Part shown: positions 5,342 to 24,703 of the stretch, in pieces
Layout: every line of letters begins with the position of its first letter
How positions within the stretch are numbered: the stretch's first letter is position 1
Origin: Halobacteriales archaeon
GTDB lineage: Archaea; Halobacteriota; Halobacteria; Halobacteriales; Hikarchaeaceae
DNA: 64,000 bases
NCBI GenBank assembly: GCA_034521615.1
Contig: JAXHME010000026.1
Coordinates: forward strand, 99,477-163,476
Direction of reading: 5' to 3'
The notes under the pieces: generated by a model
Told to the model about the DNA's origin: nothing
The model's database searches: none
The model's input: only the letters and a program-made list of their open reading frames with translations
Made by a program: the position numbers and the translations under genes

Positions 5342-5986
5342 TCAGTCGCCGCGCTGGGCGAGCTCGTAGCGGTCGGCGGGCAGCATCAGCTCGGCCAGCC
5401 CGGGCCGGTGCTTGACGTTGAAGACGACCCGCAGCTCCCGGCGGGCCGGCCGGCCCACGCAGGACAGCCGGATGCGGTCCTCGAGCTGCTCGGGCGGCAG
5501 GATGTGGTTGACCGGCATCTCGAGCTCGCCGTCGAGCACGGCGACCGCGCAGTTCGCGCAGGCGCCGCCCCGGCAGGCGTAGGGCCAGCGGTGGCCGCTC
5601 CCCTCGGCGGCCTCGAGCAGCGACTCCTCGGGGCCGACCTCGAACGAGCCGCGGTCCGCGCCGTCGAGGCCGGCCGCGTCGGCCTTCTCGAAGAGGTCGG
5701 GGTCGTCGAGGCGCCAGCCGTGGTCCTCGATGGCGTCGTAGTCGAGGTACTCCACGTGGCTGCGGAGCTCCTCGGCCTCGCCGTAGGCGGCCGCCTCGAA
5801 CTCCTCCGTCGGCGCGGGGTACTCGCCGTCGGTCAGGGCGGCGTAGGCCGCGCGGACGGCGCGGAACTCCTCGGTCGAGCCCCCGAGGTCGGGGTGGGTC
5901 TCCTTCAGCCGCTCGCGGTAGGCGCGCTCGATCGCCCCGTCGCTGGCGCCTCGGTCGACCCCCAGGACGGCGTACGGGGAGGGCAC
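5342..5986 (-). CDS. J-domain / plant-type [2Fe-2S] ferredoxin fusion protein
   Basis: The N-terminus [32 protein letters not shown] contains the J-domain HPD. The C-terminus [13 protein letters not shown]...LSCV has the C-x4-C-x2-C...C ferredoxin ligands. Confidence 0.75.
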
Positions 5987-6260: not shown

Positions 6261-7391
6261 ATGAGCGCGACGTCGCGGCTGGACCCGCTTCGGGCGTGGC
6301 TCGCGACGGTCGGCACGGCCATCGTGGCGCTGGTCGCCGGGGCGGCCCTGCTCCCGGGCCTCGTCTACGACCGGTTCATCTGGCAGTACTTCTGGGGCCC
6401 GGTGGTCGCCGACGCCAACAGCGCGGCGTGTGCCATCAAGGACGCCACGGGCGTCACGTTCCCCGGGAGCGCCGGGAGCTGCTCGACCGCCGCCGGCATC
6501 GTCGCCTACCCGGGCTACACCGTGGTCTCCGAGATCGGCTACGCGGTCACGCTGATCCTGGCGCTGGTCGGCGTCGTCTTCCTGCTCCGGCGGTTCGGGC
6601 TCGGGTCGGACCGGCGGTTCTTCTTCGCGTTGCTGCCCGTACATGTTCCTCGGCGGCGCGCTGCGGGTGGTCGAGGACGCCAACGACGCCGTCCCGGCCG
6701 GCGTCGAGCCGTTCCTCAGCTTCCCGTGGAACGCGCTGATCATCAGCCCGGTCATCTACTTCACGATGTTCGCGTTCACGCTCGCCGCGCTGCTCGTCTC
6801 GGTCCGGCTCGCGACCGCGGGCCGCACCGACGGCTACGAGCGGCCGCTGGCGGGCTTCGGCCTCGCCGGGCTCGCGCTCGTGCTCGGCTACCTGCTCTGG
6901 CTCGCGGTGACGACCGACTACGTCGGGTTCTACCCGCAGGTGCTCGCCGTCGTGCTCGTCGCCACCACCGCCATCGTCGCCGGGCTCTGGTACGGCCTCG
7001 AGCGCTACTGGCCGGCCGCGAACCGCGGCACCGGGCGGATGGGCCTCCCCGTCCTCTGGGCGCACACGCTCGACGGCGTCGCGAACGTCGTCGGCATCGA
7101 CTGGGGCGCCGAGCTCGGCCTGCCGTACGGCGACCTCGTCCCGAAGCACCCGGTGAACCGCGCGCTCATCGACGTCGGCGAGCTCTTCCCGGCGTCGCTC
7201 ACGAACGTCATCGGGACCGCGTGGCCGTTCCTGGTCGTGAAGCTCGTCGCGGCGGTGCTCGTCCTCTACCTCTTCGACGACCCCATCTTCGAGGACAGCC
7301 CGCGCTACGCCATCCTGCTCCTGATCGCCATCGTCGCGGTGGGGCTCGGCCCGGGCACCCGCGACATGCTCCGGCGTCGTTCGGCATCTAG
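6261..7391 (+). pseudogene. DUF63-family integral membrane protein, two frame changes (about 6636-6638 and 7371-7376)
   Basis: [14 protein letters not shown]... reads well to ...RRFFFALLP. The sense then continues in the 6643 frame ([15 protein letters not shown]...GPGTRDMLR). It returns to the first frame for ...SFGI* with TAG at 7389-7391. Confidence 0.6.
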
Positions 7392-7646
7392 GGGCCCGGG
7401 CAGTCAGCGGGACAGTGACCGCCTGATCCGCCGCGCGAGTGGCACGTCCCGACGCTGAGGTCCCAGTACGCGAGCGCGAAGCTCAACGCGCCGAGGCCGA
7501 GGAACAGCGCCAGCGGCACCGGCTGACCGAGCCGCCGCCGCCGTCCAGCCCGCCAGCACGAAGCAGAAGACCCCGACGACGATCAGCTCGACGTCCCGGC
7601 CGTCGACGGCCTCGGGCGGGCTTGGATCGGGGATCGAGTTCGCCAT
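7388..7646 (-). pseudogene. Small membrane protein with Cys/His-rich C-terminus, frame broken within 7529-7543
   Basis: MANSIPDPSPPEAVDGRDVELIVVGVFCFVLAGWTAAAA is followed in another frame by LGQPVPLALFLGLGALSFALAYWDLSVGTCHSRGGSGGHCPADCPGP*. The break falls in a GCC/GCG repeat run. Confidence 0.4.
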
Positions 7647-7726: not shown

Positions 7727-8101
7727 TCAGACGCTCGCGACGAACGCGATCTCGACGCGGGCGTCGATCGGCAGGTCGGCGACCTCGACGGCCGCCCGGG
7801 CCGGGTAGGGCGCCGAGAATCGCTCGGCGTAGACCTCGTTCATGCCGTCGTAGTCCGCCATATCGCGGAGGTAGACGGTCGCCTTGACGACGTCCTCGAG
7901 CGAGCCCCCGGCGGCCACGAGCACGGCCTCCGCGTTGGCGAGCACCTGGGCCGTCTGGTCGCGGATGCCCGCCACCTCGATCTCGCGGCTCTCGGGGTCG
8001 GCGGGGCCCTGGCCCGAGACGTAGACGGTCGACCCGTCGCGGATGCCCTGGGAGTACGGCCCGATCGGCGCCGGCGCGTCCTCGGTGTGGATCTCCTCCA
8101 T
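7727..8101 (-). CDS. ridA: RidA/YjgF-family reactive-intermediate (enamine/imine) deaminase
   Basis: 124 aa. APAPIGPYSQG...VYVSGQ...KATVYL.DM.D...NEVY...PARAAVEVA.LP is typical of the family. Confidence 0.85.
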   Translation of the reverse strand: MEEIHTEDAPAPIGPYSQGIRDGSTVYVSGQGPADPESREIEVAGIRDQTAQVLANAEAVLVAAGGSLEDVVKATVYLRDMADYDGMNEVYAERFSAPYPARAAVEVADLPIDARVEIAFVASV

Positions 8102-8185
8102 GGCGACTCCCCGGCGGCCGGCGGAAAATACGTTCCGAGTGCCGGCGAGCGGTAGCTACTAAGCCCGGCCGCTGGATGGGCCGGC

Positions 8186-9160
8186 ATGACCGACCGCCAC
8201 CTCTCGCTCGCCTGCGACCTCAACACCGTCACCTGGCCGGTCGCCGCCGACCGGGTCTCGACCCCTGGGCTCGACATCAACTTCCTCGCCCTCGACGACG
8301 TCAACGACATGTTCCGGCGGATGATCCGCCACCAGGAGTTCGAGGCCTCCGAGCTGTCGATGTCCTCGTACCTGATGGCCGTCGACCAGGGCGGCCCGGA
8401 GTTCGTCGCGGTCCCGGTGTTCCCCTCGCGGGTGTTCCGCCACGGCTTCCTCTTCGTCAACGACGACGCGGGCATCGACGAGCCCGCCGACCTCGCGGGC
8501 GCCCGCGTCGGCGTCCCCAGCTACTCGATGACCGCCGCGCTCTGGGAGCGCGCCATCGTCCAGCACGAGTACGGCGTGGCGCCGACCGAGATGACGTGGG
8601 TCCAGCGGCGGGGCCAGGGCACCGACGAGGGCGACCCGCTCAGCCTCGACCTGCCCGACGGGCTCGAGCTCGAGGCCATGCCTCCCGGCCGGACCCTGAG
8701 CGGGATGCTGGCCGACGGCGACCTCGACGCGCTGTTCGCGCCCTCGGTCCCCGACAGCTACGACGGCGAGACCGTCCGCCGGCTCTTCCCGGACTACCGC
8801 GCCGTCGAGACCGACTACTACGAGCGCACCGGTTACTTCCCCATCATGCACGTCCTCGTGCTCCGCCGGGACGTCTACGAGGGCGAGGAGTGGATCGCGG
8901 GCGAGCTGACCCGGGCGTTCACCGAGGCGAAGGACCGGGCGCTCGACGGGTTGGCCTCGGCGGCGCGCCGGAAGCTCGCGATCCCGTGGGCCTACGAGCA
9001 CCTCGAGCGGGTGACCGAGACGTTCGGCGACGACTACTGGCCGTACGGCGTCGAGGCGAACCGCGAGGTGCTCGAGGCGATGTGCGCCTACTCCCACGAG
9101 CAGGGGCTGACGAGCCGGCAGCTGTCGGTCGACGAGCTGTTCGCGCCGAACACCTACTGA
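8186..9160 (+). CDS. PhtD-like (4,5-dihydroxyphthalate decarboxylase family; periplasmic-binding-protein fold) protein
   Basis: 324 aa. The N-terminal pattern LSLACDLN...INFLALDDVNDMFRRMIRHQEFEASELSMSSYL matches my memory of PhtD-like decarboxylases. The assignment is from memory only. Confidence 0.6.
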   Translation: MTDRHLSLACDLNTVTWPVAADRVSTPGLDINFLALDDVNDMFRRMIRHQEFEASELSMSSYLMAVDQGGPEFVAVPVFPSRVFRHGFLFVNDDAGIDEPADLAGARVGVPSYSMTAALWERAIVQHEYGVAPTEMTWVQRRGQGTDEGDPLSLDLPDGLELEAMPPGRTLSGMLADGDLDALFAPSVPDSYDGETVRRLFPDYRAVETDYYERTGYFPIMHVLVLRRDVYEGEEWIAGELTRAFTEAKDRALDGLASAARRKLAIPWAYEHLERVTETFGDDYWPYGVEANREVLEAMCAYSHEQGLTSRQLSVDELFAPNTY

Positions 9161-9222
9161 GGGCCGAGGCCGGGGGCGGCGGTACGTTTTTGCCACCCCC
9201 CGGCGCGCGTCCATCCGACACC

Positions 9223-9828
9223 ATGACCATCCAGGACCCGCTCGAGATGGGGTCGTTCGGTCTCCTCGACTGGATCGAGGACCACAAGGAGGAGATGCAG
9301 CCCCCGATCGGCAACACGATCATCTGGGAGCAGACCGAGGGCGTCGACTTCCTGGCGATGGCCATCCGGGGGCCGAACCGGCGGCGGGCGTTCCACACCG
9401 GCCCGTCCCCGGAGCTGTTCTACCAGCTCGAGGGCACGGCCCACGTCGAGATCCTGCGGGACCCCGAGGACCAGGCCCGTCGCGAGCTCATCACGCTCGA
9501 GGCCGGGGACACGTTCATGCTCCCGACCGGGGTGCCCCACAACCCCCGGCGGACGCCCGGCTCGGTCGGCATCGTCATCGAGCTGTTCCGCGACGAGGAG
9601 GAGGTCGACGTGGTCGCCTACTACTGCCCGGAGTGCAACGGCGAGGTCCACCGCGAGCTCATCCACGAGGACTTCGGCCGGAACATCCAGCGGGTCGCGA
9701 CGGCGTTCCAGGACGACGAGGAGGCCCGGACCTGTCCCGACTGCGGCCACGTGATGGCGCCCCAGGCGGACCCCTGGACGCTCGAGGCGGCCGACGAGTG
9801 GGAGGCCCGCTGGGGCAACCGTCGGTAG
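9223..9828 (+). CDS. nbaC: 3-hydroxyanthranilate 3,4-dioxygenase
   Basis: Start at MTIQDP (ATG 9223). Cupin motifs are FHTGPSPELFYQLEG and GDTFMLPTGVPHNPRR. The C-terminal rubredoxin-like site YYCPECNGEVH...CPDCGHV matches bacterial HAO. Confidence 0.85.
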   Translation: MTIQDPLEMGSFGLLDWIEDHKEEMQPPIGNTIIWEQTEGVDFLAMAIRGPNRRRAFHTGPSPELFYQLEGTAHVEILRDPEDQARRELITLEAGDTFMLPTGVPHNPRRTPGSVGIVIELFRDEEEVDVVAYYCPECNGEVHRELIHEDFGRNIQRVATAFQDDEEARTCPDCGHVMAPQADPWTLEAADEWEARWGNRR

Positions 9829-9870: not shown

Positions 9871-10492
9871 GTGACCGACCGCGACGCCGTCCGCCGGGGC
9901 TACGACGCCCAGGCGAAGACCTACGCCGCCGAGCGAGCGCCCGGCGACGAGGAGCGGGCGGTGCTCGAGGGGTTCGCCGACCGCCTGGGCCCCGGCAATC
10001 GGGTCCTGAACGCCGGCTGCGGGCAGGGTGACCCCGTGCTCGGGTTGCTCGACGACCGGGCCGGGGCCGTCGGCCTGGACTTCTCCGCCGCCCAGCTGGA
10101 GCTCGCCCGCGAGGCGGCACCCTCGGCGTCCCTCGTCCGGGGCGACCTCACGGCGCTGCCGTTCGCGGCGGACCGGTTCGACGCCGCCGTCGCGGCTCAC
10201 GCCGTCATCCACCTGCCGCTCGGCGCAGCACGGGGCCGCCATCGCGGAGCTCGCCCGGGTGCTGCGCCCGGGCGGCCGGCTGCTGCTCTCTGAGGGGATG
10301 GCCCCGTGGGAGGGGACGAACCCGAACTGGCTCGATGGCGGCGCGGCGATGGAGTGGTCGATCGCCGGCGCCGAGGCGACCCGACGACAGCTCGAGGAGG
10401 CGGGCTTCGCGGTGCTCGAGCAGCGGACGGTCGGGGACGGGCTCGGCGAGGACGGTAGGTGGACGTTCTTCGACGCGCGGTTGGCCCGATGA
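9871..10492 (+). pseudogene. Class I SAM-dependent methyltransferase, frame broken near 10219-10224
   Basis: GTG start. It has motif I VLNAGCGQGDP and then DLTALPFAADRFDAAVAAHAVIHLPL. The sense continues in the 10028 frame (QHGAAIAELARVLRPGGRLLLSEG...). Confidence 0.7.
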
Positions 10493-21133: not shown

Positions 21134-22279
21134 TCAGGCCGGGAGCCGGCAGTCGCGGGTGTCCTCGGTGAACATCGAGAGGAACCGGGCGTACGGCGTG
21201 CCGCCCGTGCCCTCCGCCTCGCCCTCGGCGAGGTAGGCCGACACCACCTCCACGTGGAGCTCCCGGAAGCGCACCATCGCGTCGACGGCGTCGTTGTAGG
21301 CGGTGCGGACGTCGCCCCCGGCCTCGGCGGCGTACCCCCGGATGGCCGGGCCGTCGGCGGCCGCCTCGACGAAGGCCCGGTGGGCCGGCGGCATGTCCGC
21401 CCGGAGCGACTCGAGGTGCTCGACGAGCGGGTTGTCGCCGTGGTCGACGCCCACGGCCGCGTCGAGCGCGGGGAAGACGCTGGACTGGGCCCCCGACGCG
21501 CCGCGGAACGTCTGTGGACCTTCGAGCGCGTCGACGCCCTCGTACTCGACGCCGCGGAGGGCCTCGAGGTAGGGGCGGAAGCCCTGGTCGTACCGCTCGG
21601 GGGCGTTGTGCTCGCGCATGCGGTCGAGCAGCGCGATGAGGTCGTGGAGGCCCTCCTCGACGGTCCGGAGCGCCCGGACGAGGTCGGCGTCGTCGCCGTC
21701 GGCGACCGCCGCCTGGGCCGGCCCGATGGCGGCCAGGGCGGGCCCGGCCGCGCTCTCGATCGCCACGTGGATGACGACGAACCAGCGCTCGTCCGGGAGG
21801 CCCGAGAACCGGTGGATCGCCTCGAGGTCCTGGGGGCCCATCCCGGCCGCCGAGTCGAGGCGGCGCCAGTTGTACAGCGCGTAGGCGTCGTAGGAGAGCA
21901 CCGGCGTGCGGCCGAGCGCCGACGCGGCGTCGGACAGCGGGACCGCGATTCCCGCGGGCAGCACGTCGACGTCCGGGGACCCGCGCTGGTTGACGTAGCC
22001 GTTCGCGAGGAAGCCGCAGACGGTGTAGGCCCGCTCGGTCTCCCGCGTCGAGCGCCCCTCGAGCCAGCCGTCCGGCGGCGGCTCGAGCCCGTCGACCTCG
22101 TCCCGGAGCTCGCCGGCGGCCAGCAGGTCGTCGAGCCCGTTCGCCAGCTCGTCGAGCCGCGAGAGGAACGGCGGCGCGTCCGCGCCGAACGAGGCGAGCG
22201 GCGGCTCGTCGGGGAGGAAGCCGTGCTCGGCGCTGACGCCGAACCGCTCGAGATCGGTGGTGGGGACCGGGCCGGCCAT
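21134..22279 (-). CDS. Indoleamine 2,3-dioxygenase (IDO) family heme dioxygenase
   Basis: RGASGAQSSVFPALDAAVGV matches human IDO GGSAGQSSVFQCFDVLLGI. LRADMPPAHRAFV matches MRRYMPPAHRNFL. RFRELHVEVVSAYL matches the proximal-His helix. The start is taken at MAGPVPTT (22279); 22306 is also possible. Confidence 0.8.
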   Translation of the reverse strand: MAGPVPTTDLERFGVSAEHGFLPDEPPLASFGADAPPFLSRLDELANGLDDLLAAGELRDEVDGLEPPPDGWLEGRSTRETERAYTVCGFLANGYVNQRGSPDVDVLPAGIAVPLSDAASALGRTPVLSYDAYALYNWRRLDSAAGMGPQDLEAIHRFSGLPDERWFVVIHVAIESAAGPALAAIGPAQAAVADGDDADLVRALRTVEEGLHDLIALLDRMREHNAPERYDQGFRPYLEALRGVEYEGVDALEGPQTFRGASGAQSSVFPALDAAVGVDHGDNPLVEHLESLRADMPPAHRAFVEAAADGPAIRGYAAEAGGDVRTAYNDAVDAMVRFRELHVEVVSAYLAEGEAEGTGGTPYARFLSMFTEDTRDCRLPA

Positions 22280-22442
22280 CTGGGCCGGTGGAGGAGGAGG
22301 CGCCACCTAAAGCTGCGCCCTCGGGCGGCTGCCATGGCTGTCCACCGATGGGGCGATGGGTGCGTCGGGCGCCAACCCTGTCCGGCGACGGCGGTCGGTG
22401 ACCACCGCAACACCCAACCCGCCGGCCGGCCAGCCACCCGCC

Positions 22443-23729
22443 ATGGACGACGCGTTCGAGCCCACCCGCGAGCACGCCCGCGAGCGGGACCACGCGGCGC
22501 CGCTGGCCCTCGCGGACCGGTTCTCGCTGCCCGACCCGCTCTACCTCGACGGCAACTCGCTGGGGCCGCTGTCCGACGCCGCCGAGGCGGCGGTCGAGAG
22601 CGTCCTCGAGGAGTGGCGCGAGCTCGGCATCCGCGCCTGGACCGACGCCGACCCGCCGTGGTTCCACTATGGCGAGCACCTCGGCGACCGACTCGCGCCG
22701 TTGGTCGGCGCCCGCCCCGACGAGGTCGTCGCCGCGAACTCGACGACCGTCAACATCCACACGCTGCTCGGGACGTTCCTCGACCGCTGCGCCCGGGAGG
22801 GCCGCGGCCGGAAGGTGCTCGTCGACGCTCTCGACTTCCCGACCGACCACTACGCCATCCGGGGCCAGCTGCAGGCCCGCGGCCTGGACCCCGACGAGCA
22901 CCTGGTCGTCGTCGAGTCCGACGACGGCCGGACGGTCTCCGAGTCGGCCGTCGAATCAGCCCTCGACGCCCACCCCGAGGTCGGGATCGTCTTCCTGCCC
23001 TCCGTGCTCTACCGGTCGGGCCAGCTGCTCGACGTCGAGCGGCTGACCCGGGCCGCCCACGACCACGACGCCTACGCGGGCTTCGACCTCGCCCATACGG
23101 TCGGGCTCGTCCCCCACGAGCTGGCGGGCCACGGCGTCGACTTCGCCGTCTGGTGCACCTACAAGTACCTCAACGCCGGGCCGGGCTCGATCGGCGGGCT
23201 CTACGTGAACCGGGCCTACCACGGCGAGCAGCCGGGGCTGCCGGGCTGGTGGGGCCACGAGAAGGAGAGCCAGTTCGAGATGCGGATGCAGTACACGCCC
23301 GCCGAGACCGCGGGTGCCTGGCAGATCGGGACGGTACCGGTGCTCGCCGCCGCGCCGCTGCTCGGCGTCCTCGACCTGGTCGAGGCGGCCGGGCTCGACC
23401 GGCTGCGCGAGCGCTCGGTGGCGCTCACGGCGTACCTCATCGCCCTCGTCGACGAGCGGCTGCCGTCGTGTACCGTCGGGACGCCCCGCGAGGCCGACCG
23501 CCGGGGCGGCCACGTCGCGATCGAGCACCCCGAGGCCTACCGGCTGGGCGAGGCGCTGAAGGACCGCGGCGTGGTCGTCGACGTCCGCCCGCCGGACGTC
23601 GTCCGCCTCTGCCCGTCGCCGTACTTCGTCGGCTTCGAGGACGTCTACGACGCGGTCGACATCCTCCACGACGTCCTCGACGAGCGGGCGTACGAGGCCT
23701 ACGGCGCGGCGGGCGACGGGGTGACCTGA
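22443..23729 (+). CDS. kynU: Kynureninase
   Basis: Start at MDDAFEPTRE (ATG 22443). The sequence reads YLDGNSLGPLS...WCTYKYLNAGPG...WWGH. It is about 428 aa, a PLP fold-type I protein. Confidence 0.85.
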   Translation: MDDAFEPTREHARERDHAAPLALADRFSLPDPLYLDGNSLGPLSDAAEAAVESVLEEWRELGIRAWTDADPPWFHYGEHLGDRLAPLVGARPDEVVAANSTTVNIHTLLGTFLDRCAREGRGRKVLVDALDFPTDHYAIRGQLQARGLDPDEHLVVVESDDGRTVSESAVESALDAHPEVGIVFLPSVLYRSGQLLDVERLTRAAHDHDAYAGFDLAHTVGLVPHELAGHGVDFAVWCTYKYLNAGPGSIGGLYVNRAYHGEQPGLPGWWGHEKESQFEMRMQYTPAETAGAWQIGTVPVLAAAPLLGVLDLVEAAGLDRLRERSVALTAYLIALVDERLPSCTVGTPREADRRGGHVAIEHPEAYRLGEALKDRGVVVDVRPPDVVRLCPSPYFVGFEDVYDAVDILHDVLDERAYEAYGAAGDGVT

Positions 23730-23730
23730 G

Positions 23731-24667
23731 ATGGCGGCGCACGCCGACGCGCTCGACCCGGAGCTCGCGGCGGTGATCGAGGCGTTCCAGGACCAGGGGC
23801 TGCCGGCCTGGCACTCGCTGTCGGTGGGGTCGGCCCGCGAGCTCGAGGACGAGCTCTTCTCGGGCGGGAGCGGCCCCGAGCTGGCGTCCGTACGGGACGT
23901 CCGCATCGACGGGCCCGGCGGCGAGCTCCCCGTCCGGCTCTACCGGCCGGCGGCCGAGGACCCGCCGACGCTGGTGTTCTACCACGGGGGCGGCTGGGTG
24001 CTCGGCACGCTCGACTCGGCCGACGACATCTGCCGCGAGCTGGCCGGTCGCACCGGCGCGCTCGTCTGCTCGGTCGGCTACCGGCTGGCGCCCGAGCACC
24101 CGTTCCCCGCCGGGGTCGACGACGCGTTCGCCGCGCTGCAGTGGGCGTCGCTGCACGCCCGCGAGCTCGGCGCCGACCCCGACCGGCTCGGCGTGGCCGG
24201 CACGAGCGCGGGCGGGAACCTCGCCGCCGCGACGGCCCGCCGGGCGCGGGATCGGGGCCCCGAGCTGGCGGGGCAGTTCCTGCTGTACCCCATCGTCGAC
24301 CCGGCCCTCGACACGCCCTCCTACGACGAGCACGGCGACAGCCCGCTGCTCTCGAAGGCCGACATGGCCTGGTTCTGGGACCGCTATCTGCGGAGCCCGG
24401 TCGACCGGGCGAACCCCTACGCGAACCTCGCGGCCGCCGAGGACCTCGCGGGGCTTCGCGCCGGCGACCGTGCTCACCGCGGGCTTCGACGTGCTCCGCG
24501 ACGAGGGCGCGGCGTACGCCGACGCGCTGGCCGACGCCGGCGTGCCGACCGACCACGACCACTACCCCGCGCTCGCCCACGGCTTCCTGAGCCTCACGGA
24601 CGACGTTTCGGCGGCCGACGAGGCGATGGATGCGCTGGCCGAGCGGGTTCGGGACCGGCTCGGCTGA
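23731..24667 (+). pseudogene. Alpha/beta-hydrolase fold-3 esterase (HGGG / GTSAGG); candidate kynurenine formamidase; frame broken at about 24456-24461
   Basis: It has the oxyanion motif FYHGGGWV and the nucleophile elbow GVAGTSAGGN. After ...AAAEDLAGL the sense continues in ORF 24470-24667 (…TVLTAGFDVLRDEG...ALAHGF...). It starts 2 nt after the kynU stop. Confidence 0.7.
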
Positions 24668-24703
24668 CCGGCGCCTGGGCCTGGACGCCCGCGTAGCCGA
24701 TGG

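Follow-up and report, generated by a model that had tools for sequence, protein, structure and literature searches.

At 2-amino-3-carboxymuconate semialdehyde (ACMS), NAD synthesis and the complete oxidation of tryptophan part ways, and to our knowledge the zinc amidohydrolase ACMSD is used by every organism described on the oxidative branch. The bacterial 2-nitrobenzoate lower pathway combines the 3-hydroxyanthranilate 3,4-dioxygenase (HAO) NbaC, the ACMSD NbaD, the dehydrogenase NbaE, and the RidA-family 2-aminomuconate deaminase NbaF. Enzymes of the PhtD family, represented by 4,5-dihydroxyphthalate decarboxylase (PhtD/Pht5/OphC, EC 4.1.1.55), remove one of two adjacent ring carboxylates, helped by an electron-donating substituent. 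Here we describe a locus in a 64,000-nucleotide stretch of haloarchaeal DNA (GenBank assembly GCA_034521615.1, contig JAXHME010000026.1, positions 99,477 to 163,476; hereafter the window, with positions counted from its first nucleotide) at which genes of the HAO, PhtD, and RidA families stand side by side.

Comparison of this locus with the bacterial 3-hydroxyanthranilate (3-HAA) and 2-nitrobenzoate lower pathways revealed that (i) an HAO gene with its full set of residues likewise adjoins a RidA-family gene; (ii) the genome that contains the window (G000) has genes of the 4-oxalocrotonate decarboxylase/hydratase type and genes for an aldolase and an acetaldehyde dehydrogenase, as in the 2-nitrobenzoate pathway; (iii) a PhtD-family gene is located where ACMSD would sit, and no dedicated aldehyde dehydrogenase gene is present at the locus; and (iv) the RidA is of the archetypal and not the AmnD/NbaF type, and the host is an archaeon. 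Our best explanation, which we hold tentatively, is that the three genes form a catabolic 3-HAA module in which a PhtD-family enzyme would replace ACMSD and which would not primarily be a route to NAD.

The three genes and their products

G000 is a haloarchaeal metagenome-assembled genome (MAG) of 2.26 Mb in 29 contigs, 67.6% complete according to marker genes, with a G+C content of approximately 73% and acidic proteins. The best-matching DNA runs of the window stretch are salt-pan metagenomes. The three genes are as follows:

7727..8101, minus strand: RidA-family enamine/imine deaminase, 124 amino acids (PF01042 and TIGR00004 scores)
8186..9160, plus strand: PhtD/Pht5-family enzyme with a periplasmic-binding-protein fold, 324 amino acids, cytoplasmic, candidate decarboxylase (9jp7 homology)
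9223..9828, plus strand: HAO, 201 amino acids, with a C-terminal rubredoxin-like Cys4 site (PF06052 and TIGR03037)

The starts of the divergent RidA and PhtD-like genes are 84 nt apart, and 62 nt separate the stop of the PhtD-like gene (9160) from the start of HAO (9223), both on the plus strand. A first-pass annotation made from the window sequence had placed HAO 62 nt downstream of a 324-residue PhtD-like protein with RidA divergent, and these positions and spacings were borne out. The RidA and PhtD-like frames are coding, with a G+C content at third codon positions (GC3) of 0.98–0.99 and an acidic composition; the HAO frame is backed by family profile scores instead of GC3. All three are real genes at the coordinates given.

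The HAO protein scored 115.8 bits against PF06052 (cut-off 25) and 154.6 bits against TIGR03037 (cut-off 145.95). In the alignment with the Cupriavidus enzyme 1yfu, residues Arg47, His51, Glu57, His95, Arg99, and Glu110 of 1yfu correspond to R54, H58, E64, H106, R110, and E120. The iron ligands (H58, E64, and H106) and the substrate contacts (R54, R110, and E120, the counterparts of Arg47, Arg99, and Glu110) are thus kept, and all 3-HAA-binding residues are retained. In addition, C135, C138, C171, and C174 match the 1yfu cysteines and form a rubredoxin-like Cys4 site of the bacterial type. The product of 9223–9828 is therefore what the first-pass annotation, from cupin motifs and a CxxC tail, had called a confident HAO; by sequence it is a bona fide 3-hydroxyanthranilate 3,4-dioxygenase, and because the scores exceed the cut-offs and the 1yfu residues are kept, its reaction product should be ACMS. 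The closest bacterial HAOs are approximately 40% identical to the window protein, and HAO was not found in 300, and then in 400, sampled Halobacteria genomes (394 of the 400 at least 90% complete). These comparisons indicate that HAO is a rare acquisition in the class Halobacteria.

The RidA protein scored 132 bits against PF01042 and 147 bits against TIGR00004 (cut-off 106.25), and it keeps the carboxylate-binding arginine (R102, in the motif PARAAVEV). Its best solved relative is the archetypal PH0854 (130 bits), and the 2-aminomuconate deaminase 6izh scored only 46 bits. The scores assign the protein to the archetypal subtype and not to the AmnD/NbaF/AMD 2-aminomuconate-deaminase type. Five RidA-family genes are present in G000, among which the RidA of the trio is an extra paralogue, 60% identical to the nearest one (contig C5) and 67–80% identical to the RidA genes beside HAO on other contigs.

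Residues 6–324 of the PhtD-like protein align to residues 26–344 of 4,5-dihydroxyphthalate decarboxylase (PDB 9jp7) with 244 bits and an E value of 1.8e-71. A hydrophobic leader is lacking, the N-terminal residues matching the first strand of the cytoplasmic 9jp7, and the sole Pfam match is a marginal one to PF12974 (Phosphonate-bd, 27.7 bits against a cut-off of 27, residues 28–136). No transporter genes adjoin the PhtD-like gene in the window. An ATP-binding cassette (ABC) transporter substrate-binding protein is ruled out by the marginal, partial PF12974 match, the lack of a leader, the lack of adjacent transporter genes, and the homology to 9jp7. The protein is predicted to be a cytoplasmic enzyme of the PhtD family and not a binding protein, in keeping with its original placement in a decarboxylase family. 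It has no Amidohydro_2 match, and hence no homology to ACMSD, which it would resemble in proposed function only.

Fifty-seven family-wide positions, including R82, R85, H86, Y113, R122, and H222, are kept in clades A and B (described below) and in 97 other members, and the window protein retains the family motifs SRxFRH, Y113, T116, R122, FPIMH, and DDYWPYG. It differs from 4,5-dihydroxyphthalate decarboxylase in belonging to a separate haloarchaeal clade and in the replacement of D14, R15, E112, and Q114 by T, V, S, and S. 9jp7 has these four residues, as do more than 75% of the 97 other members (over 95% in the case of D14, R15, and E112); they are replaced in clades A and B, the replacement being found in all or in 13 of 14 clade-A proteins. 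The aromatic-acid bulk of the family therefore appears to have a different substrate. Genes for phthalate dioxygenase or dihydrodiol dehydrogenase were found neither among the annotated window genes (approximately 1.5–28 kb) nor at related loci. With the partner genes absent and the signature residues replaced, a canonical phthalate pathway, or an orthologue of EC 4.1.1.55, is ruled out.

Conservation of the gene trio

Loci of relatives were found by exact-protein look-ups of the closest relatives. At least four further metagenome contigs of haloarchaea also carry the trio, and the related loci are arranged as follows (identities are those of the PhtD-like protein to the window protein):

L026/L027 (74%): RidA on the minus strand, then PhtD-like and HAO; beside a Liv-type ABC importer and a CoA-transferase gene
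L028 (68%): PhtD-like and HAO, then a convergent RidA; near a UbiD decarboxylase gene, a metallo-beta-lactamase-fold gene, and two Liv-type importers
L032 (63%): RidA, PhtD-like, and HAO on one strand; beside IclR, a benzoate-CoA-ligase-family gene, MaoC, SDR, and a second RidA
L120 (61%): PhtD-like and HAO, then an isochorismatase-like fragment and an alpha/beta hydrolase gene whose product is 40% identical to that encoded after kynU in the window

Two further proteins, P0004 (PhtD-like, 76%) and P0122 (an HAO homologue, 83%), each have a longest contig of 5,097 bp and are therefore probably encoded on one contig. The G+C content of the relatives' HAO loci is 53.5–68%, compared with 73% in the window, the flanks are unrelated, and RidA occupies three different positions; the trio has therefore been relocated and rearranged as a unit. 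Such retention through rearrangement is the usual signature of functional coupling. Adjacency without functional meaning, the three genes having been co-inherited from the common ancestor of a few related lineages, would fit the fairly narrow group that the trio-bearing sequences form (60–83% identical to the window proteins). This explanation is very unlikely, given the three positions and orientations of RidA, the unrelated flanks, the G+C range of 53–73%, and the fact that the RidA of the trio is an additional paralogue and not the sole RidA of the genome.

The linkage of the PhtD-like gene to HAO and to RidA thus recurs in other genomes and survives rearrangement (L026/L027, L028, L032, and L120). 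As for the wider expectation that the neighborhood is kept in other archaea and bacteria, it held for one haloarchaeal clade and failed for bacteria: neither HAO nor RidA was present at any of 82 bacterial PhtD-family loci (573 kb in total, 40–45% identity). A scan of genome contigs with the single PhtD-like protein yielded only two actinobacterial loci (43% identity), and a scan of metagenome contigs with the clade-A alignment yielded only bacterial members (40–45% identity), which served as a negative control, and no new haloarchaeal loci.

The surroundings of the trio at other loci are catabolic: Liv-type ABC importers flank it on three contigs, and a benzoate-CoA-ligase-family gene, IclR, and a UbiD decarboxylase gene lie nearby. 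Importers, a CoA ligase, and UbiD would also suit a PhtD-like enzyme that handles some other imported aromatic or heteroaromatic acid, perhaps making 3-HAA from a carboxylated precursor, and that is co-regulated with HAO without acting on the HAO product. The constant position of the PhtD-like gene upstream of HAO fits this alternative, as do the size of the family (more than 3,200 proteins at E ≤ 1e-20) and its varied contexts (82 bacterial loci without HAO). We nevertheless consider it unlikely. The tight three-gene unit and the RidA and aspartate dehydrogenase (AspDH) partners (described below), which act on 2-amino/imino acids, fit a role after ring cleavage better, and we know of no metabolite that yields 3-HAA by decarboxylation.

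The PhtD-like gene is present at 5 of the 6 HAO loci seen, and the link between RidA and HAO is the tightest. Among 18 genomes of the same family, the only other HAO-bearing one is G306 (83% complete), whose locus is arranged as follows:

G306:C93:1-3520 (L136): RidA and HAO directly divergent, HAO followed by an orphan molybdenum-hydroxylase large subunit of 755 amino acids

No small or medium subunit genes lie beside this large subunit, and the G306 assembly as a whole has no detectable PhtD-like gene. The G306 locus bears on an explanation in which ACMS cyclises spontaneously to quinolinate, a molybdenum hydroxylase converts quinolinate to 6-hydroxyquinolinate, and loss of the carboxyl para to the hydroxyl, catalysed by the PhtD-like enzyme, gives 6-hydroxypicolinate for pyridine catabolism. 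A 6-hydroxyquinolinate decarboxylase of Alcaligenes sp. UK21, cofactor-free and with a substrate from the HAO product line, has been said to be similar to phthalate decarboxylases (review PMC6644310). The large subunit directly after HAO in G306 is in line with such a route, as is a full CoxLMS-type cluster elsewhere in G000. The isochorismatase-like fragment and the alpha/beta hydrolase gene after HAO on L120 also fit, both being enzyme types used in steps of the maleamate pathway. However, the route needs a quinolinate hydroxylase, and the molybdenum-hydroxylase and PhtD-like genes are unlinked at all loci seen, the sole molybdenum-bearing HAO locus being that of G306; the molybdenum enzyme of G000 is 48% identical to that of G306 and is encoded in a generic cluster; RidA would be left without a role; and the residues D14, R15, E112, and Q114, replaced here, hardly vary among the members with aromatic substrates that make up the bulk of the family. 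We regard this explanation as distinctly unlikely.

Proposed function of the module

In the catabolic module that we propose, (i) HAO would open 3-HAA to ACMS, a step backed by the conserved catalytic and substrate-binding residues; (ii) the PhtD-family enzyme would take the 3-carboxyl off, standing in for the unrelated zinc enzyme ACMSD; (iii) RidA would hydrolyse the 2-enamine/imine, before or after decarboxylation, to give ammonia and 2-hydroxymuconate semialdehyde; and (iv) a hydrolase or dehydrogenase, a hydratase, an aldolase, and an acetaldehyde dehydrogenase encoded elsewhere would lead to pyruvate and acetyl-CoA. ACMS has two carboxylates on adjacent sp2 carbons, as in phthalate, as well as an electron-donating 2-amino group, and it therefore fits the ipso-protonation/decarboxylation chemistry expected of the PhtD family; protonated at C3, it becomes a beta-iminium acid primed for CO2 loss. 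Like ACMS itself, its decarboxylation product 2-aminomuconate semialdehyde is a 2-enamine/imine acid, and RidA acts on this class of compounds. For a decarboxylation that does not depend on ACMSD, the PhtD-family enzyme is the strongest candidate.

If this assignment is correct, a cofactor-independent enzyme with a periplasmic-binding-protein fold would act at the ACMS step, constituting a clean non-homologous replacement at a medically studied branch point and giving the large PhtD family its first role beyond phthalate degradation. HAO, and probably tryptophan or 3-HAA catabolism, is seen here in uncultured haloarchaea, of which the trio may represent a conserved catabolic 3-HAA module, a reading that is possible, though short of probable, on the gene sequences and their arrangement. 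The three proteins are small, soluble, and directly assayable.

Phylogeny of the PhtD family and a sister clade

A maximum-likelihood tree of 71 PhtD-family members grouped the six HAO-linked PhtD-like genes together as clade A (support 95/82), next to a sister clade, B (100/99), the two together having a support of 100/100. The PhtD-like genes of clade B have fixed partners, namely a divergent gene of the AspDH family and, downstream, a gene for an amidohydrolase_2 protein of the ACMSD/LigW superfamily, an arrangement found in the cultured haloarchaeon Salinigranum halophilum and on three metagenome contigs. The clade-B loci and one further clade-A locus are as follows:

L029:5064-8044 (Salinigranum halophilum SSNM01000004.1), L033, and L121: AspDH-family gene divergent from PhtD-like, then an ACMSD-superfamily amidohydrolase gene
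L119:2970-5036: clade-A PhtD-like on a long branch, then a 65-residue open reading frame (ORF) and the gene of a true NAD synthase, NadE (329 bits)

Three Amidohydro_1/3 genes and an NMT1-type ABC importer are located near the clade-B cluster of Salinigranum halophilum.

In eukaryotes, 2-aminomuconate arising after ACMSD is reported to be handled by the fungal AMD, of the RidA family, and by human ASPDH as a 2-aminomuconate reductase (preprint 10.64898/2026.06.05.730449). RidA in clade A and AspDH in clade B, each a divergent neighbor of the PhtD-like gene, belong to these two 2-aminomuconate enzyme families, and 2-amino/2-imino dicarboxylate chemistry of the ACMS type is therefore indicated. 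Of the indirect arguments that clades A and B may act on ACMS-type 2-amino/2-imino dicarboxylates, this parallel between the partners is the strongest. The eukaryotic enzymes differ in following a canonical ACMSD and ALDH8A1, neither of which is linked to the trio.

Pathway genes elsewhere in the genome

nadA, nadC, and the nicotinate phosphoribosyltransferase (NAPRTase) gene were sought in G000 by profile, and none of nadA, nadB, nadC, and NAPRTase was found in this 67.6%-complete genome; tblastn of G000, with the G306 NAPRTase and the ORFs from the nadA-nadC region of a relative as queries, gave no match from those genes. A canonical nadC route is thus not visible in the assembly. nadA and nadC were not found in G306 either (83% complete), which has NAPRTase. 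Across the MAG-only haloarchaeal family (G301–G318), nadA is present in 3 of the 18 genomes and nadC exceeds the cut-off in 2. De novo NAD synthesis seems generally absent in the lineage, with or without HAO, and the lineage may depend on pyridine salvage.

None of the five Amidohydro_2 proteins of G000 is a clear ACMSD. The nearest, encoded on contig C28, scored 85 bits to human ACMSD, equal to its LigW-type score, and is 47% identical to a clade-B partner. The lack of a clear amidohydrolase-type ACMSD, previously remarked for the locus, therefore extends to the genome in its assembled part.

Three genes related to tryptophan breakdown are located 12 kb from the trio:

21134..22306, minus strand: IDO-type tryptophan/indoleamine dioxygenase (PF01231, 236 bits)
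22356..23729, plus strand: kynureninase (TIGR01814, 345 bits, cut-off 246.4; KYNU_C, 101.9 bits)
23731..24696, plus strand: hormone-sensitive-lipase-type alpha/beta hydrolase, candidate formamidase (NCBIfam LipP1-type, 285 bits, residues 10–242 only)

The hydrolase gene starts 2 nt after kynU and has a frame break near 24452; beyond it the alignment to the L120 homologue runs on in a different frame, and the C-terminus as annotated is arginine-rich nonsense. The break is an assembly indel or marks a pseudogene. No IDO is present in G306.

The pair formed by IDO and kynureninase would suit a role of the locus in NAD synthesis, with HAO supplying quinolinate for a nadC in the unassembled third of the genome and its neighbors as bystanders, or with the PhtD-like enzyme converting quinolinate to nicotinate and bypassing nadC. 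The failure to find nadA and nadC in G000 or G306, the NAPRTase of G306, the NadE gene beside one clade-A gene (L119), and the AspDH-family gene in clade B can be read in the same direction. Against it, G306 yielded no PhtD-like gene and G000 no NAPRTase, so that a full bypass is seen in neither assembly; nadA and nadC are missing from most genomes of the family regardless of HAO; the settings at the other loci are catabolic; and quinolinate does not have the electron-donating group of the known substrates of the PhtD family. We consider a role in NAD synthesis improbable. The specific form of the bypass, in which the PhtD-like enzyme would decarboxylate spontaneously formed quinolinate to nicotinate and NAD would be made from tryptophan or 3-HAA through Preiss-Handler enzymes with no quinolinate phosphoribosyltransferase, is highly improbable, and the earlier suggestion that the enzyme acts on quinolinate itself gained no specific support.

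The lower part of the proposed catabolic module has candidate genes in G000, with two xylI/xylJ-type genes, an acetaldehyde dehydrogenase gene (dmpF), and a DmpG-type aldolase gene (dmpG), located as follows:

G000:C5:68000-71700 (L135) and contig C6: meta-cleavage module with two FAA_hydrolase-type genes, an acetaldehyde dehydrogenase gene, and a DmpG-type aldolase gene with a frame break

A hydrolase of the meta-cleavage-product type is also encoded in G000. The lower meta-cleavage module lends the catabolic reading permissive, not specific, support. A near-copy of it is present on a 5.4-kb contig. As for the entry into the module, no convincing kynurenine 3-monooxygenase was found in G000, the best FAD_binding_3 protein resembling other aromatic hydroxylases. 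Two genes of G000 resemble 2-aminobenzoyl-/salicylyl-CoA monooxygenase-reductases (835 and 618 bits to NF006101), so that a CoA route may be the exit for anthranilate made by kynureninase.

Assessment of the proposed function

Several observations weigh against a catabolic 3-HAA module with a PhtD-family enzyme in place of ACMSD: (i) G306 has RidA and HAO with no detectable PhtD-like gene, so that HAO can manage alone or the adjacent molybdenum-hydroxylase subunit substitutes; (ii) the RidA of the trio is archetypal, while the archetypal human RIDA did not deaminate 2-aminomuconate (10.64898/2026.06.05.730449), which is a further difference from the eukaryotic enzymes; (iii) clade B is paired with an ACMSD-superfamily gene, so that the role of the family could be another decarboxylation in related chemistry; (iv) the clade-A member L119 adjoins NadE, and no HAO is present on its 6.4-kb contig; (v) the source of 3-HAA has no assigned enzyme, since no convincing kynurenine 3-monooxygenase was found; (vi) a catechol-2,3-dioxygenase-like gene on contig C17 is another possible feeder of the lower meta-cleavage module; and (vii) G000 is only 67.6% complete. 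The overall interpretation of the first-pass annotation, that a PhtD-like enzyme and RidA might handle the HAO product, consequently stands in part. The linkage of the trio, the decarboxylase family of the PhtD-like protein, the lack of a clear ACMSD or nadC, and the presence of a lower pathway speak for it; the restriction to one clade, the absence of a detected PhtD-like gene from G306, and the archetypal RidA speak against it.

Neighboring genes and an aromatic-acid island

Just upstream of the trio, the window encodes a J-domain fused to a [2Fe-2S] ferredoxin domain (5342–5986, minus strand) and a DUF63 membrane protein (6643–7458, plus strand), neither of which is related to the trio. Directly 3′ of HAO is an S-adenosylmethionine-dependent methyltransferase gene (9871–10492, plus strand), which is split into the overlapping frames 9871–10293 and 10028–10492 and is not kept beside the trio at other loci.

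Elsewhere in G000, contig C17 carries an aromatic-acid island:

G000:C17:42000-87431 (L013, L014, and L138): HpaB-type monooxygenase, catechol-2,3-dioxygenase-like gene, Abhydrolase_1 hydrolase, and Liv-type binding protein

The island also contains two salicylyl-/2-aminobenzoyl-CoA monooxygenase-reductase-like genes, two RidA paralogues, and a second kynureninase-like gene.

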